64,000 nucleotides of DNA, taken from assembly GCA_963735035.1 (NCBI GenBank), contig CAVTJJ010000004.1, positions 416,001 to 480,000 on the forward strand, in the 5' to 3' direction. The notes under the pieces were generated by a model. The model searched no databases. It had not been told where the DNA came from and saw only the letters and a program-made list of their open reading frames with translations. Each line of letters opens with the position of its first letter. Positions within the stretch are counted from its first letter, which is position 1. Positions 50,787 through 60,869 of this stretch are shown piece after piece. Origin of the DNA: an uncultured candidate division Zixibacteria bacterium (lineage in GTDB: Bacteria; Zixibacteria; MSB-5A5; GN15; FEB-12). A program made the position numbers and the translations under genes.

Positions 50787-53290
50787 ATGAAAGCAGTCGT
50801 CATGGCCGGCGGTTTCGGGACCCGACTCCGCCCGCTCACGATAAATACACCCAAACCGATGGTGCCGATCGGCAATGTCCCGATGATGGAACATGTGGTC
50901 GGGCTGCTGGCGCGCCACGGTCTCACCGATGTCACATCGCTGCTCTATTTTCATCCTGAGAGTATTCGCAACTATTTCGGTGACGGCTCCAGGGTCGGCG
51001 TCCAGATGGCTTACGAAAAGCCGAGCGATGATCTCGGTACCGCCGGGGCAGTTCGCTATGCGTTGGGCGAGCCCCGCGAACCGGTGCTGGTGATATCCGG
51101 CGACCTGGTGACCAATTTTGATCTGGCCGAAGCCATAAAATGGCACAAAGAAAAGAAGGCCGACGCCACTATCCTGCTCACTCGCGTAGAGAATCCGATC
51201 GCTTACGGCATTGTCATCACTGACGATGACGGCCGAATTGTCGAATTCCTCGAAAAGCCCACCTGGGGCGAGGCGTTCTCAGACACCATCAATACTGGCA
51301 TTTATATTCTCGAACCTCAGGCGGCGGCGCTGATCCCCAAGGACGAGAATTTTGATTTTTCCCAGAACCTGTTCCCGCTCATGCTCAAGAACGGCATGAA
51401 GCTTCACGGGAAGATTATGGACGGGTACTGGAAGGATGTGGGCAACACCGACGAATATTTCCGCGCCCACTTCGATCTCTTTGCCGGCGACCTGACTTTG
51501 CCGCTCAAGAACAGCAAGGAAGAAATTGACGGGGCCGTAGTCTACAAGGGTCGCAATGTTCGTCTCGGTCAGGATGTGAAATTCTCCGGCACGGTGCTTC
51601 TGGGTGATGACGTCAATGTGGGTGACGGCGCTCAACTCTACAACTGTGCCCTCGGCCAACGGGTAAGGGTGGGTTCGCGCAGTAGTATCAAAGACTCGGT
51701 AGTCTGGTCGGATACGGCCATAGGCAGCGAGTGCCGCTTCTCGCGCGCCCTGGTTTGTGCCGCAGTACAGGTCGGCGACAATGTTGAGCTGGCCGATCAC
51801 TCGATCGTTTCCGACGAATGCGTGGTCGGCGATTCCGCGACGGTTCGGGCTAACTGCAAGATCTGGCCGGGGAAGAAAGTCGACGAGGGCGCGATTGTGT
51901 CATCGTCGCTGGTCTGGGGCGACGCCTGGAACCGGGAGCTGTTCACCGATTCGAAAATAACCGGTCTGGCGCTGACCGAGATTACGCCGGAGATGGCGGT
52001 CAAGGTTGGGGCGGCGTTCGGCGCTACGCTCGGTCAGGGCAGCGCTGTCGTGACGAGCCGCGAAGTTTCCGACGTGGCCCAGTTGCTCCGTCGTTCCGTG
52101 ATGTCCGGCCTGATGGCGTCCGGGGTCAATGTTTATGACCTCGAGACTCTCCCCGTGCCGGTTGTGCGGTATGCACTGAAGAAAGGCGACTACGCTGCCG
52201 GCATGTATGTTCGCCACAACCCGGTCGACTATCGTTATCTCGATTTCATATTCTTCCACGGCTCGGCGCTCGACATGCCGACCTCTCAGCTCAAGAAAGT
52301 TGAGCGCAATTATTTCGGCGAAGACTTCAAGCGCGCTTCGATCAGCGAGATCGGTCACCTGGACTACCCGCAGCGGGTGTTGCGTGACTACCAGGCTGAT
52401 TTCATGGCCGAGGTTGATGTCGATATCATCCGCGAGGCCGGGTTCAAAATTGTGGTCGATTACGCCCACGGATCGTCGTCCGAGGTATTCCCCGATCTGT
52501 TCTCACGCCTGGGCATCTCCAGCACCGAGTTGAATTCCCACCCGAATCCGCTGAAATCGTCGGTGCCGCCCGAAGAGTCAGCCCGTGCTACCGTGCAGCT
52601 TGTCGGCCATCGTGCGCTCGCTCAACGCCGACGTGGGCTTCCGCGTCAATCCGGCCGCCGAGAAACTGACCGTGGTGGACGAAAACGGCCGCCCGTTGGA
52701 CGATCAGACGCTCTTGATGCTGGTAACTGAGCTTTATATTCGTACGCATCATCCCGAGAAGATCGCTGTTCCGGTGGCGGCGTCGATGGGGATCGAAGAG
52801 ATCGCCGACCGCTACGGAGTACAGGTCGTGCGGGTGACGAACGACCATCAGGCGATGATGAAAGTCCACATGTCGGGTGAGGTTGATTTTGTCGGCGGTA
52901 CGCGCGGCGGCTTTGTCATGTCGACGATTCCACAGCGGTGCCGACGCCATTTTCGCACTGGTGAAACTGCTTCAAATGATGGCGCAGACCCGGGGCCGCC
53001 TGGGACACCTTCGCACCAACTACGAACACCTGGTGCGGCAAACCGTCTCGGTACCCTGTCCCTGGTCGCGCAAGGGGACGGTCATGCGCCGACTGATCAC
53101 CGAGTCGGTGAACAAGCGACGGCAATTGATCGACGGCGTCCGCATTATCGAGGATGACGGCTGGGTGTTGATCGCGCCGGACCGGTTCAACGCGGCGTTT
53201 AATATCTTTGCCGAATCGAAGTCGCGTAAGGTGACCGAATCGCTTATCAGCAATTATAAGTCGGTGGTGGAGAACTGCCAGGAAGCGTAG
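50787..53290 (+). CDS. Mannose-1-phosphate guanylyltransferase fused to phosphomannomutase-like domains, two apparent +1 frameshifts
   Basis: MAGGFGTRLRPLT..PKPMVP, EKP, DTINTGIY, hexapeptide repeats, then PMM-like core. Shifts near 52600 and 52925. Confidence 0.85.
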
Positions 53291-54714: not shown

Positions 54715-56114
54715 ATGGACTACAAAATTCGAACCAAAGTTTCCCGCATACTGATCGATGACGCCGTCCCGGCGGATACGGCTATTACTGTTCTTGGCTG
54801 GGTCAAGACGGTCAGGGTATCCAAGGCCGTGGCTTTTGTCGAGATCAACGACGGCTCCTGCATGGGGAATCTTCAGGCGGTTGTGGCCGATCCAGACAAA
54901 TACCCGGTGCTGGAAAAGTTGCTCACCGGGGCGTCGGTGCGGGTCAAAGGGAAATTGGTGGCGTCGCAGGGCCAGGGCCAGAAATACGAACTGGCGGTCG
55001 AGACCCTCGATCTGATCGGCGAGGCCGACCCGACCTATCCGCTTCAGAAGAAACGCCACACGTTTGAATATCTTCGCGAGATCGCCCATCTCCGGCCGCG
55101 CACCAATACGTTCGGGGCGGTCGGCCGGATGCAGCTCCAAGATCGCCTACGCCATTCACAAGTACTATCAGGAACGCGGGTTCTTCTATGTCCATACGCC
55201 GATGATTACGGCGTCGGACTGCGAAGGAGCCGGCGATATGTTCCGCGTGACCACGCTCGATCTGGACAACATCCCGCGCAAGGAAGGCAAGATCGATTGG
55301 GACGCTGATTTCTTCGCCTCGGAAACGTACCTGACCGTGTCGGGGCAGCTCGAGGGCGAGCTGATGGCGACTGCGCTGGGGGATATCTACACGTTCGGGC
55401 CGACTTTCCGCGCCGAGAACTCCAACACCAGTCGCCATGCCTCGGAGTTCTGGATGATCGAGCCGGAGATGGCCTGGGCGGAGATCGATGACAACATGGA
55501 TCTGGCCGAGGATTTCCTGAAATACCTGTTCCGGTTTGCGCTCGAAGAATGCGCCGACGACATGGCGTTCTTCAACCAGTGGGTGGACAAAGATGTCATT
55601 CGGACGCTCGAGAGCGTGGTCAATTCGCAGTTCGAGCGGATCACTTATACGCAGGCGATTGACATTCTCAACAAGTCGGGCGAGAAGTTTGAGTACCCGA
55701 CCGAATGGGGCTCAGATCTTCAGAGCGAACACGAACGCTTCCTGACCGAGAAGAAAATCGGGCGACCGGTAATAGTGTCCGACTATCCCGGAGAAGATCA
55801 AGTCGTTCTATATGAGAATGAACGAGGACGGCAAGACGGTCGCCGCGATGGATGTGCTGGTGCCGAAAGTGGGCGAGATCATCGGCGGGTCACAGCGCGA
55901 GGAACGCTACGACGTGCTCATGGACCGGATCAAGGCGAAGGGGATGACCGGCATGGAGAACTACTACTGGTATACTGATATTCGTCGCTGGGGTTCGGTG
56001 CCGCACGCCGGGTTCGGACTGGGGTTCGAACGCGCGATGATGTACATCACGGGCATTTCGAATATCCGCGATATCCTGACTTTCCCGCGAGTTCCGCGGT
56101 GGGCGAAGTTCTAG
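54715..56114 (+). CDS. asnS: Asparagine--tRNA ligase, two apparent +1 frameshifts
   Basis: [75 protein letters not shown]. Shifts near 55132 and 55787. Confidence 0.96.
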
Positions 56115-56188: not shown

Positions 56189-56198
56189 ACTTCCACAC

Positions 56199-56308
56199 AA
56201 GAAAAGACGCCCGTTCTGGACGGGCGTCAAGGGTGCTCCGTAGAGCAAAACCTTCGAGACGGTTGTCTCTTACTGAGACTTGACTAACAACCGCCGCTTG
56301 AGTACATT
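56199..56308 (-). ncRNA. tracrRNA
   Basis: Minus strand: 37-nt anti-repeat AATGTACTCAAGCGGCGGTTGTTAGTCAAGTCTCAGT, nexus-like GAGAC-AACC-GTCTC, hairpin AAGG..TGCTC-TACG-GAGCA.CCTT, terminator GACGCCCGT-CCAGA-ACGGGCGTC-TTTTCTT. Confidence 0.9.
56280..56308 (+). promoter_or_regulatory. Predicted cas9 promoter inside the anti-repeat
   Basis: TTGACT-17 nt-TACATT, ending 45 nt before the cas9 ATG. RBS AAGGGGA at 56342-56348. Confidence 0.6.
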
Positions 56309-56353: not shown

Positions 56354-59300
56354 ATGAACCACGACAACGGTGAATCCAAACATCTGGGAATCGACCTTGG
56401 CCCAAATTCCATCGGGTGGGCGTTGGTTGAAGCGCCAGACAACAATACTCATCAGCTTGTCGTATCGGGTGTTCGCGTCTTTGAAGCGGGACTTGATAAA
56501 CTAGAATCCGACGGCAAAGGGGAATCCCGCAATGTCGCCCGACGTGCCGCGCGTCAGTCGAGGCGGGGAATTGAAAGAAGAGGCAGAAGGCTCACAAAAA
56601 TAGCCAACATTCTGCAGCGAGCGGGCCTTTTACCTGAAGGTGATCTGACCGACAGCGAGATCAGGCACAAGATATTGACGGAGCTTGATCTCAAGGTGGG
56701 CAATCCATACTCACTTCGTGCGCGTGCCCTTGATGAGAAATTGTCCAAACACGAACTCGGTCGCGCCTTGTTCCATTTGGCGCAAAGACGCGGCTTCCTC
56801 AGTAACCGCAAATCGGCGCCCAAGAAAGACGACGAGACTGGCAAAGTCAAAGCAGGTATAAGCCAGTTGAAGAAAGATATTGAAGCGTCTGGCTCGCGCA
56901 CACTCGGCGAGTATTTCAGTCGCATAGATCCGTTTCAACACCGGATACGGACGCACTACACGCATCGCTCGATGTATGAGCATGAGTTCAATCTCATCTG
57001 CGAGTCACAGAGTCGTTTTCATGCAGATGTATTGACAGATGATCTTAGAAAGATTCTTCACAAGGCGATCTTCTTTCAGCGGCCGCTCAAGAGCCAATCG
57101 CATCTGATTGGCAAATGCGAACTGGAACCGAAATACCGCCGCGCCCCTTGGGCGTTGCTCTGTGCCCAGCAATTCCGGTATCTGCAAACAATCAACAATC
57201 TGCGAGTGCTTGATGTCCCGAACCGCGAATTTCCGGAGTTGACCCCGGCCGAGCAATTCGCATTGGCAGAAAGGCTGGAATATCAGGAAGAGATGACTTT
57301 CGGTGCGGCGCGCAAGTTGTTGAACCTGCCCAAAACAAGCAAATTCAGCATTGAATTGGGCGGCGAGAAGAAGATCAAAGGCAACAGGACTGCGGCCTGC
57401 CTTGCCAAGATATTCGGCCTGGAGCGATGGCAAGCCATGACATCGGAAGAGCGCGACGCGGTGGTGGAAGACTGGCGAAGCATTGTCAAGGAAGAGACGC
57501 TCAAGAAACGCGGCATGAACAAATGGGGTCTTGACGAAGTCGCCGCAGAAGAACTGAGCCACCTGAATCTTGAAGAGGGCTATTGCTCAATGTCGCGTCA
57601 GGCTATCGCAAAACTACTGCCGCGACTTAGCTGTGGTGAAGCCCTGCAAACCGCTATCAAAACCGTGTACCCGGAACGCTTTGAACGCGTTGGTGCGGCT
57701 GTTGATACCCTGCCTCCAGTACGGGAATACTTCCCCTCGTTGCGGAACCCAATAGTGGAACGCGCTCTTACGGAATTGCGGCAAGTAGTGAACGCCATTG
57801 TTCGCGAGCATGGAAGACCCGCCGTGATTCGAGTTGAGCTGGCACGCGAACTGAAACAGCCGGCGAAGAGTCGCGAGGATACTATCAAGCGGATGCGCGC
57901 CAACGAAAAAGACCGGGCGAAGGCGGCGGAAAGAATACTTGAGGAAGCGAGAATCGCCAATCCGTCTCGGAGTGATATCCTCAGGGTTTTGTTGGCTGAG
58001 GAATGTGAGTGGACTTGCCCTTACACCGGCAGGCATTTCGGTATGACTGAAATCGTCGGAGATTCGCCGCAATTCGATATCGAGCATATCATCCCGCTCC
58101 ATAGGTGCCTTGACGACTCTTACATGAACAAGACCCTCTGCTATGCCGACGAAAACCGAAACCGCAAACGTGATCGAACTCCGTTTGAGGCCTACGCAGG
58201 CACCCCACAGTGGGATGAAGTTGTCGCACGGGTAGGAAAGTTCAAGGGCACGGCGGCAAGAGCCAAGCTGCAGCGCTTTCAGATGAAGCCTGAGGAGGTT
58301 GGGGCGTTGCTCGACAATTTTACTTCCCGGCAGTTAAACGATACCGCTTATGCCTCCCGAATGGCGAAGGAATATCTCGGACTTCTATTCGGCGGTCAGG
58401 ACAGCGACGGCATTGATGCCTCCAGTCATCGTCGCGTGCAGTGTACCAACGGCCAGGTCACAGCTTTTCTGCGCAATGTCTGGAGCCTCAACAGCATTCT
58501 TGGCGACGGACCCCGCAAGACCCGCGACGACCACCGCCATCACGCTGTTGACGCCGTCGTGGTCGCCCTGACCGATGCCGGCGCGGTCAAACGTCTGAGC
58601 GACGCGGCTTCTCGGGCCAAAATCGAGCGGCGGCGGCAGTTCGGCAAGGTGCCCCTACCGTGGGAGACATTCGATCAGGATGTTCGGCAGAGCATCGACA
58701 ACCTGGTCGTTTCGCACCGGCTCGATCACCGGGTAAGAGGTGCGTTTCACGAGCAGACTTTTTATGGTCGCCCAAGCCTCGGAGACGATGGCAAGCAGTA
58801 CGTACACACTAGGAAGCCGATTGAGAGAATCTCAGCCAAGGACATCAAAGACATTGCCGACAAGGCGGTGCGTGAATGTATCGAAAAGGCGCTCAGTGTC
58901 CTGGGGCAATCGAATCCTGCTGATGCTTTCAAAGACCCGGCCAGTCATCCGATCCTCAGCGGTGGAAACGACACCAGCAGGCCGATTCATCGGGTGCGAT
59001 TGAAGTCCTCTCTGAGGACTTTCGAGATCGGTTCCGGGCATCGTTTGAGGCATGTGGTACCAGACCGCAACCACCACATGGAGGTCGTGGAATTGCTCGA
59101 TGATAATGGGAACACCACCGGTTGGGAAGGGCATGTCGTTGATCTGTTTGAGGCGCGCCGTCGACTCGACCGGCGTGAACCGGTCATCAAGAAAGACCAC
59201 GGGTCGGGGAAATGCTTTCTATTTTCTCTGGCCAACGGCAACGTTATTGAATTGGACCAAGACGATGGTTCTCGTGGACTTTGCATCGTCCGAACCATCG

Positions 59301-59461
59301 AGACAAGTTCCAATATTAGGTGGGTTAGTATAAGAGATGCCCGGAAGTTGGCTGGTCGATCTAAAGCCGGTGAGACGGCTCGGCCGGATCCACTCCGAAA
59401 GAAGAACTGCTGCAAAGTAACAGTCGATCCGCTCGGCCGAGTCCGGCGAGCGCGTGATTAG
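56354..59461 (+). CDS. cas9: Type II-C CRISPR endonuclease Cas9 (1035 aa)
   Basis: RuvC-I LGIDLGPNSIGWA, Arg-rich bridge helix, HLAQRRGFLSNRK, RuvC-II IRVELARE, HNH FDIEHIIP..DDSYMNKTLC...N, QLNDTAY, RuvC-III DHRHHAVDA, C-terminal KVTVDPLG. Confidence 0.98.
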   Translation: MNHDNGESKHLGIDLGPNSIGWALVEAPDNNTHQLVVSGVRVFEAGLDKLESDGKGESRNVARRAARQSRRGIERRGRRLTKIANILQRAGLLPEGDLTDSEIRHKILTELDLKVGNPYSLRARALDEKLSKHELGRALFHLAQRRGFLSNRKSAPKKDDETGKVKAGISQLKKDIEASGSRTLGEYFSRIDPFQHRIRTHYTHRSMYEHEFNLICESQSRFHADVLTDDLRKILHKAIFFQRPLKSQSHLIGKCELEPKYRRAPWALLCAQQFRYLQTINNLRVLDVPNREFPELTPAEQFALAERLEYQEEMTFGAARKLLNLPKTSKFSIELGGEKKIKGNRTAACLAKIFGLERWQAMTSEERDAVVEDWRSIVKEETLKKRGMNKWGLDEVAAEELSHLNLEEGYCSMSRQAIAKLLPRLSCGEALQTAIKTVYPERFERVGAAVDTLPPVREYFPSLRNPIVERALTELRQVVNAIVREHGRPAVIRVELARELKQPAKSREDTIKRMRANEKDRAKAAERILEEARIANPSRSDILRVLLAEECEWTCPYTGRHFGMTEIVGDSPQFDIEHIIPLHRCLDDSYMNKTLCYADENRNRKRDRTPFEAYAGTPQWDEVVARVGKFKGTAARAKLQRFQMKPEEVGALLDNFTSRQLNDTAYASRMAKEYLGLLFGGQDSDGIDASSHRRVQCTNGQVTAFLRNVWSLNSILGDGPRKTRDDHRHHAVDAVVVALTDAGAVKRLSDAASRAKIERRRQFGKVPLPWETFDQDVRQSIDNLVVSHRLDHRVRGAFHEQTFYGRPSLGDDGKQYVHTRKPIERISAKDIKDIADKAVRECIEKALSVLGQSNPADAFKDPASHPILSGGNDTSRPIHRVRLKSSLRTFEIGSGHRLRHVVPDRNHHMEVVELLDDNGNTTGWEGHVVDLFEARRRLDRREPVIKKDHGSGKCFLFSLANGNVIELDQDDGSRGLCIVRTIETSSNIRWVSIRDARKLAGRSKAGETARPDPLRKKNCCKVTVDPLGRVRRARD

Positions 59462-59476
59462 CCTGCCCAAACCATA

Positions 59477-59967
59477 AATGTACTCAAGCGGCGGTTCGTG
59501 TCAAGCCCCAGCTGTCTCTACCTTCTCACGCCGTGGGGCGTAAATGTACTCAAGCGGCGGTTAGCTGTCAAGTCCCAGCTGGACTACGTATTGATTGCCC
59601 TGTTGCTGGAATGTACTCAAGCGGCGGTTAGTGTCAAGTCCCAGCGCCGTGGGGCGTACAGGCGCAATCGTCAAAATGTACTCAAGCGGCGGTTCGCGTC
59701 AAGTCCCAGCTCAGTACGTATTCCATGATTAAGTCCTTTCAATGTACTCAAGCGGCGGTTCGCATCAAGTCCCAGCGCAGTCGGTGGGCTGATTCGGTAT
59801 CTACCAATGTACTCAAGCGGCGGTTCACGTCAAGTCCCAGCTCACCGTTCACCTGTCCGCTACCTAGTCGAATGTACTCAAGCGGCGGTTTGCGTCAAGT
59901 CCAGCCGACTTGAAGGGATCAGTTATGACCAACGCAATGTACTCAAGCGGCGGTTCGCGTCAAGTCC
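59477..59967 (-). CRISPR. CRISPR array, 8 repeats (about 36 nt) and 7 spacers (29-30 nt)
   Basis: Plus-strand repeat AATGTACTCAAGCGGCGGTTnnnnTCAAGTCCCAGC at 59477, 59543, 59610, 59675, 59741, 59806, 59871 and 59936 (last truncated). Minus orientation inferred from tracrRNA complementarity and the 3' -10 box typical of II-C. Confidence 0.97.
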
Positions 59968-60068
59968 GCCTGACCTACGATTATCCCATTGAACCGCTTC
60001 GCTTCAGCCTCTTTTGGCCCCCTCAAACAATTCTAAATCCTACCCCTCGCTTTGCCGATATAAGAGAC

Positions 60069-60869
60069 ATGGGCTACAAGTCTGACTTACGCCAGGTCCT
60101 GATTGCTGTCTTCGGGCTCGCTCTGAGCGCGCTCGTGATCGGCTGCAATGGCGCGCCGACCAAGAGCAGCAACGAGGACAAATACCGCGTCGACGGTCTG
60201 GTTGTACAGAACCTGAACGTCGACACGGCGTTCATTGCCGCCCGATTCGCCCGCAACGACACCTCGATTACCAACGCCTCGATCAAACTCGCCGGTACGC
60301 CTCTGGGCTATTTCGCGTCGCTTCGAGGCATCCTCGCGGCCTATCAGTCCTGGCTGAAACCGGCAGATTCGCTGGCGGGATCAAGTGTCTATCTTCGTGT
60401 CGCCGACGCCAGTCGCTTCACTGATAGTCTGCCGCTGGGTATCGTAGGCACTTTCGGCCTGACCGACAACTTCCAGCCGCCCAACCATCATCTCCAGGGT
60501 ATGACTAATTATGTCTCTCTGGAATGGACCGCGGCCGCCAACGCGGATAGCTACGTGCTAGCCGCCGTCAAGACGTCACTGGTCGGCACCGGAGCAGGCT
60601 ACAGCGCCCAGGTGACAGCGACCGGCGTGGCCGGAACTATTCCCGCGGATGCCTTCATGAATCCAAGCACCAACCTTCCCGACACCGGGCTTTACAATAT
60701 CTATGTATATGCCTTCAACGACGCCCCCGACTCGGCTTTAGCGACCAAACTCCTGCCGGTGCCGTGGCCAATTCAGGTGACCGAGAATATCGCTCGAACG
60801 TCTCTGAAGGGTCGGTTCGGGTCTATCACCGTGGCGCTCAAGGACACGGTTCGGGTGCTCGCTCAGTAG
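60069..60869 (+). CDS. Hypothetical lipoprotein
   Basis: MGYKSDLRQVLIAVFGLALSALVIGC lipobox. The true start is downstream of the array. Confidence 0.75.
   Translation: MGYKSDLRQVLIAVFGLALSALVIGCNGAPTKSSNEDKYRVDGLVVQNLNVDTAFIAARFARNDTSITNASIKLAGTPLGYFASLRGILAAYQSWLKPADSLAGSSVYLRVADASRFTDSLPLGIVGTFGLTDNFQPPNHHLQGMTNYVSLEWTAAANADSYVLAAVKTSLVGTGAGYSAQVTATGVAGTIPADAFMNPSTNLPDTGLYNIYVYAFNDAPDSALATKLLPVPWPIQVTENIARTSLKGRFGSITVALKDTVRVLAQ

Follow-up and report, generated by a model that had tools for sequence, protein, structure and literature searches.

Overlapping spacer pairs in a type II-C CRISPR array without adaptation genes point to probable repeated acquisition from the same short sites

Spacers 2 and 4 of a seven-spacer CRISPR array, located in the 64,000-nucleotide stretch of DNA that was analysed here (the window), overlap end to end. 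To judge from the spacers themselves, they almost certainly share a source site, captured on opposite strands, in either one target or two variants of it. On balance it seems likely that they represent two acquisitions from one short site of a foreign element (phage or plasmid), captured from opposite strands and in two sequence variants. The array closely follows a cas9 gene in what can be described, from its gene content, as the derived remains of a type II-C locus that has lost its adaptation genes, and in this setting the spacer 2/4 pair is an ordinary consequence of CRISPR adaptation. The coordinates of the features discussed are presented in Table 1.

Table 1. Features of the type II-C CRISPR locus, in window coordinates.
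Feature	Position	Strand	Description
tracrRNA	56195..56308	(-)	anti-repeat 56308-56273, conserved stem region, terminator hairpin 56228-56206 followed by a T run
cas9	56354..59461	(+)	1035 aa, uninterrupted; TIGR01865 703 bits, full length
CRISPR array	59477..59970	(-)	8 repeats of 35-37 nt, 7 spacers of 29-30 nt
Spacer 1	59513..59542	(-)	last 13 nt on the plus strand identical to the first 13 nt of spacer 3
Spacer 2	59580..59609	(-)	guide is the reverse complement and overlaps guide 4 by the 15 PAM-proximal nt of each; strand assigned from tracrRNA orientation
Spacer 3	59646..59674	(-)	same-strand overlap with spacer 1
Spacer 4	59711..59740	(-)	guide is the reverse complement, with AAGGA, 7 nt, then ATG GAA TAC GTA CTG

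Spacers 2 and 4 are each bordered by repeats of 36-37 nt, and spacer 2 is identical to the reverse complement of spacer 4 at 13 of the 15 overlapping positions. The significance of this match was evaluated by comparing the seven spacers pairwise, in either orientation and at every offset of at least 10 nt, which amounts to 1686 comparisons, against mononucleotide shuffles (n = 1000). The spacer 2/4 match ranks second-best in this series (binomial score of 6.0, as -log10, over the 1686 comparisons), and its score was reached by none of the 1000 shuffled spacer sets. The best-scoring pair consists of spacers 1 and 3, which are identical at 13/13 positions on the same strand, a score also reached by 0/1000 shuffles. 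Four of the seven spacers fall in these two overlapping pairs, 1/3 and 2/4, which are interleaved. That the 13/15 match reflects a coincidence between unrelated spacers is hardly credible: the overlap is short and its central TACGTA palindrome slightly eases opposite-strand matches, but the shuffles and the binomial score both speak against chance, as does the presence of a second, independent overlapping pair in the same seven-spacer array. Segmental duplication within the array was also considered and was rejected, since the spacer 1/3 overlap is 17 nt out of register and spacers 2 and 4 lie on opposite strands.

The original prediction for this DNA had given the sequences and positions of spacers 2 and 4, their 13/15 alignment and their translations, and all of these were reproduced. 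Spacer 2 reads DYVLIALLL in plus frame 3 and spacer 4 reads KDLIMEYVL in minus frame 3, while the two differences between the spacers, GAA/GAC (E/D) and CTG/TTG (L/L), correspond, as proposed, to one conservative and one synonymous change. The interpretation placed on these data, namely two alleles of one gene start, stood in part. The overlap supports a single site captured on opposite strands, but the suggestion that the site belongs to a repressed host gene family was not supported, no match above chance level being found in the host contigs.

The strand of the guides was deduced from the tracrRNA. The anti-repeat located upstream of cas9 is an inverted copy of the repeat, matching over 36 nt at 86%, and is preceded on the minus strand by a promoter-like -35/-10 sequence. 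The complete upstream arrangement of promoter, anti-repeat, stem region and terminator is kept in seven loci (the present one and those of six other genomes of the order), and the stem of the terminator displays compensatory changes across loci. Cofolding of the anti-repeat with all eight repeats yielded energies of -51 to -58 kcal/mol, and in each of the eight duplexes a small internal loop separates a 12-nt stem from a 20-bp stem. Because the tracrRNA lies on the minus strand, this would also be the strand from which the crRNAs are read. In both guides, the shared 15 nt thus constitute the 3', PAM-proximal (seed) end, and the PAM of each would fall within the protospacer of the other. Guide 4 reads the strand that carries AAGGA and ATG, and guide 2 reads the opposite strand, such that, counted from its PAM end, guide 4 has the two mismatches at 4 and 11 nt and guide 2 has them at 5 and 12 nt. 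Given the seed requirements of Cas9, neither guide should work well on the variant matched by the other. The two mismatches of each guide to the other variant thus suggest that guides 2 and 4 are probably complementary, not redundant, each covering its own variant of the site. The PAM flanks deduced from the overlaps for guides 2, 3 and 4 display no clear motif and have in common just a G at position 8, which could be due to chance.

The repeats carry promoter-like elements of their own. In seven of the eight repeats, the minus strand contains the sequence TTGAC[AG]-16/17 nt-TACATT, which ends at the edge of the repeat and matches 9-10 of the 12 consensus positions; promoter-like sites in the region number 12, against 2.2 expected. 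Each repeat probably supplies its own predicted promoter. Such promoters would lead to working guides of approximately the last 23-24 nt of each reverse-complemented spacer. The promoter-like sequence of the repeats recurs as TTGACT-17 nt-TACATT on the plus strand of the anti-repeat DNA (56280-56308), where it precedes the cas9 start by 45 nt, and cas9 may thus be driven by a repeat-derived predicted promoter placed back to back with the start of the tracrRNA.

The match of Cas9 to TIGR01865 lies far above the cut-off of 100 bits, and Pfam matches were obtained for RuvC_III (81 bits), HNH_4 (57 bits) and Cas9_a, the RuvC and HNH regions both being retained in the sequence. The closest solved chains are Cas9s of 1082-1092 residues (E of 1e-77), which we take to be the Neisseria meningitidis enzymes. 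From these similarities the protein resembles Neisseria-type II-C Cas9s and the locus can be classified as a Neisseria-like type II-C system. Two of the features on which type II-C membership is based, a Cas9 with RuvC and HNH and a tracrRNA anti-repeat, are present here, and a further one, the operon of cas9, cas1 and cas2 only, is absent.

The parallels with the type II-C systems of N. meningitidis and Campylobacter jejuni include a Cas9 of ~1000-1100 residues and a tracrRNA that is divergent from cas9. Repeat-embedded promoters are described in passages of PMC5965381 for the arrays of these two species, and the present locus has, as predicted from sequence, comparable 36-nt repeats with promoter-like -35/-10 elements that oppose the direction of cas9. 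The cas9-cas1-cas2-array order of the Neisseria and Campylobacter systems is found in relatives only. In contrast to those systems, the locus described here has no cas1 or cas2, its array starts 15 nt past the cas9 stop codon (59462-59476), its repeats are not uniform and it belongs to a different phylum.

Searches for Cas1 (PF01867) and Cas2 (PF09827) returned no match in the whole genome, which comprises six contigs and is 96.9% complete, nor was a second CRISPR array or CRISPR-Cas system that could supply Cas1-Cas2 in trans found there. With both genes absent, the array can no longer acquire spacers. CRISPR loci without adaptation genes have been reported, and those of PMC8092290 similarly consist of an effector and an array without their own cas1 and cas2; the present locus differs from them in that no other system able to provide the missing proteins was found in the genome.

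Of 40 related genomes, 8 contain a Cas9 relative; with the match of the present genome included, the count is 9 of 41. One of the eight is a genome of the same genus (G002, 77% identical). In G002 the interval between cas9 and the array measures 1.3 kb and holds cas1 and cas2 and nothing else (Cas1, 111.9 bits; Cas2, 48.9 bits), giving the order cas9-cas1-cas2-array, and the array contains 19 identical repeats. Four other genomes, G017, G018, G033 and G038, display the same cas9-array interval and essentially uniform repeats, the exceptions being one substituted repeat in G038 and a degenerate last repeat in G018. A hairpin element located just ahead of the first repeat is common to all five relatives and is missing before the first repeat of the present array. 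In a genome of another family (G034; L016 107-400), the array lies ~19 nt past cas9 and has five mutually differing repeats; no Cas1 was found in that genome, which is only 76% complete, and its adaptation-less, degenerate array looks independent of the one described here.

The divergence of the repeats follows a distinct pattern. Repeats 1-7 contain ten changes, eight of which are located at repeat positions 21-24, the positions that form the internal loop of the repeat:anti-repeat duplex. Changes thus affect 8 of the 28 loop sites in these repeats, against 2 of the 224 sites contributed by the remaining 32 positions. In the final repeat (59936-59970), the 3' end on the plus strand has degenerated. 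The array is thus no longer homogenised by new insertions, and the repeat segments involved in tracrRNA pairing or in the predicted promoter are kept, with changes limited to the unpaired loop. This confinement suggests that the interference half of the system is still under selection. Six of the seven substitutions at positions 21-24 are C-to-T or G-to-A changes within CGCG, and the genome encodes two C5-cytosine methyltransferases (G000:C4:497602-498606 and C6:431766-432845); hot spots of methyl-cytosine deamination could thus provide an alternative to neutral drift at these positions. Frameshifts were observed in genes close to the locus. The asnS gene is split over three successive frames (54715-55308, 55064-55978 and 55812-56114, within the region 54715-56114), and the phosphoglucomutase part of a 647-aa fusion ORF appears to run on in another frame (50787-53157). 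These interruptions are either indel errors of the assembly or pseudogenes, and by extension some of the indel-type differences in repeat 2 (37 nt) and repeat 7 (35 nt) may be assembly errors.

The age of the array bears on the origin of the two mismatches between spacers 2 and 4, which could have arisen by mutation after acquisition in a frozen array. If so, there would have been a single source sequence and never two alleles. An array that lacks cas1 and cas2 and has accumulated ten repeat changes is old enough to drift, but the low frequency of change outside the loop and the perfect identity of the spacer 1/3 overlap make this explanation unlikely. The nature of the differences, one conservative and one synonymous in the frame of the ATG, also argues against it, although two changes constitute weak evidence.

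In the preferred reading, spacers 2 and 4 would record separate acquisitions from one site present in two variants. Their order is suggested by two observations, the degenerate repeat at the cas9-distal end, as also seen in G018, and the element at the cas-proximal end in the relatives, which together indicate that new spacers probably entered next to cas2. With entry at the cas-proximal end, acquisition would have followed the order 4, 3, 2, 1, and spacer 2 would be younger than spacer 4. The array may thus have grown in two rounds, with one site giving spacer 4 and then spacer 2, and a second site giving spacer 3 and then spacer 1. Spacer 2 could represent re-acquisition from a variant that had escaped guide 4 through two changes in its seed region, and the interleaved pairs would fit either acquisition hot spots or a priming-like clustering without strand bias. 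The lineage would later have lost cas1, cas2 and the element beside the first repeat, leaving a frozen array.

Clustering of this type has precedents. According to passages of PMC8265633, new spacers in type II systems cluster near an earlier protospacer without strand bias, and the same passages cite Nussenzweig et al. 2019 and Nicholson et al. 2019 on priming-like, Cas9-dependent clustering. As in those reports, several spacers of one array seem to derive from one small region, on either strand. The present case differs in that the distance is zero (the protospacers overlap), the subtype is II-C where the reports concern II-A, and the locus has since lost its adaptation genes, such that the process is deduced from its record alone. 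A comparable opposite-strand pair occurs in the array of the relative G017 (L013), where spacers 4 and 8 match at 19/25 positions around an exact 14-nt core; this is the only other clearly significant within-array pair among the 67 spacers of the relatives. Spacer 15 of the same G017 array also resembles its spacer 4 (19/30, same register). Spacer 3 of the present array resembles spacer 2 of the G038 array (L015, from another family) at 19/27 positions on the same strand with an offset of 3 nt, a likeness that is borderline given the number of comparisons and that may reflect a homologous gene in related mobile elements.

The site shared by spacers 2 and 4 has the layout of a gene start, with AAGGA followed by 7 nt, an ATG and a hydrophobic run. 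By criteria that were chosen after the sequence had been seen, the combination of a Shine-Dalgarno-like word with an ATG and an open frame is met in ~1% of random genome 45-mers or shuffles, and the additional presence of at least 7 hydrophobic residues out of 9 reduces the frequency to 0.03% (genome) and 0.0085% (shuffles). An open frame is found on the opposite strand as well (PATGQSIRSP in spacer 2; SVRIP and then a stop in spacer 4), so that the site could alternatively represent the 3' end of a gene in that orientation. A translation start is plausible and, we infer, reasonably likely. The position within a gene is without functional meaning for DNA cleavage by an intact Cas9.

The target of the pair is present neither in the host nor in the collections that were searched. 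In the host genome (all six contigs), blastn-short revealed chance-level partial matches only, the best extending over 17 nt with one mismatch. Outside the array, the host lacks any match to the PAM-proximal seeds of guides 2 and 4, whether taken as 12 or as 14 nt, and a six-frame search of the host for M[DE]YVLIALLL with up to two substitutions recovered only the spacer itself. Two sets of relatives were searched with up to three mismatches allowed, one of 285 genomes from the phylum for spacer 2 and one of 108 from the family for spacer 4; the array was the sole match in each case. Exact searches of IMG/VR gave no match for full spacers 2 and 4, for the 22-nt PAM-proximal parts of spacers 3, 4, 5, 6 and 7 or for a codon-degenerate pattern of spacer 2. 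In blastn searches of INPHARED phages, spacers 2 and 4 and the segment 59513-59935, which includes the seven spacers and the repeats between them, produced only matches of E >= 0.4, and matches in PLSDB plasmids were at chance level (2 at E = 5).

The degenerate spacer 2 pattern recovered loci in two further collections, all of which were rejected as candidate targets. JGI metagenome contigs, which were searched with this pattern only and not with spacer 4 or the other spacers, contained one locus where it lies antisense inside a 473-aa phosphorylase-like ORF and another where it falls in the signal peptide of an unrelated gene (23/30). The GTDB genome contigs contained seven loci distributed over four unrelated gene contexts. 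Over both collections, the degenerate pattern thus falls antisense to a phosphorylase-like ORF, within an internal membrane helix or in small genes that are unrelated, and the loci match the 15 upstream nt of spacer 4 at only 2-8/15 positions. A search of the GTDB contigs with 24 nt of spacer 4 returned no match.

These results bear on the function proposed for the two guides. The original prediction had left the choice between a recurrent mobile-element gene and a host gene family repressed near its ribosome-binding site, and had pointed to seed-only matches at host gene starts as the sign of regulation, and to a protein search for the corresponding N-terminus. Neither a seed match nor a host frame with that N-terminus was detected in the six contigs. 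With no full, seed or peptide match in the host, host regulation is not supported. The viral and metagenome comparisons, covering IMG/VR, phages, plasmids and JGI contigs, yielded no match that would confirm a mobile element. Of the two options, the mobile element is the better candidate.

A related proposal is that the frozen mini-array has been kept to repress a resident element or a host gene, with Cas9 binding at the ribosome-binding site and start codon rather than acting in defence. The conservation of the interference half after loss of the adaptation genes would be in line with such a role, as would the devotion of four of the seven spacers to two sites, one of which resembles a translation start. 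The lack of any full, partial or seed match in the six contigs, of a host frame with the predicted N-terminus and of any match at up to three mismatches in the related genomes (285 for spacer 2, 108 for spacer 4) stands against it, as do the RuvC and HNH regions kept in Cas9, and this proposal appears highly improbable. Nearly as doubtful is the broader idea that a Cas9 without adaptation genes and a frozen array of seven guides might be kept as the dedicated controller of one persistent element, a domesticated device for surveillance or repression and not a decaying immune record. If that were true, four of the seven guides would be directed at two short stretches, one of which would span the ribosome-binding site and start codon of a gene for a small membrane protein, and the guides would have remained nearly unchanged while the unconstrained repeat positions changed at 8 of 28 sites.

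Under the preferred reading of two acquisitions from a foreign element, the overlapping spacers are what CRISPR adaptation can be expected to leave behind, as clustered spacers are in general, and they matter little by themselves. The locus is of modest value in three other respects. It extends Neisseria-like II-C systems with apparently repeat-embedded promoters to a poorly studied phylum. It offers, together with G002, a natural before/after pair within one genus, in which cas9-cas1-cas2 with uniform repeats can be set against cas9 alone with diverging repeats. Finally, the divergence confined to the loop would provide a natural map of the repeat positions that Cas9 tolerates in the guide:tracrRNA duplex.

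Two minor observations concern the ends of the arrays. Directly downstream of the present array, a 319-aa ORF (59910-60869) begins with a TTG codon that overlaps the last spacer. The ORF has no match in Pfam or NCBIfam, and its homologue in G002, inspected as a possible marker of the old end of the array, has no CRISPR array adjoining it; the true start of the ORF is probably further in, near 60070. In the arrays of G002 (L011) and G038 (L015) that reach the end of a contig, the partial last spacer repeats the spacer two units earlier, which is probably an assembly artefact at repeats.
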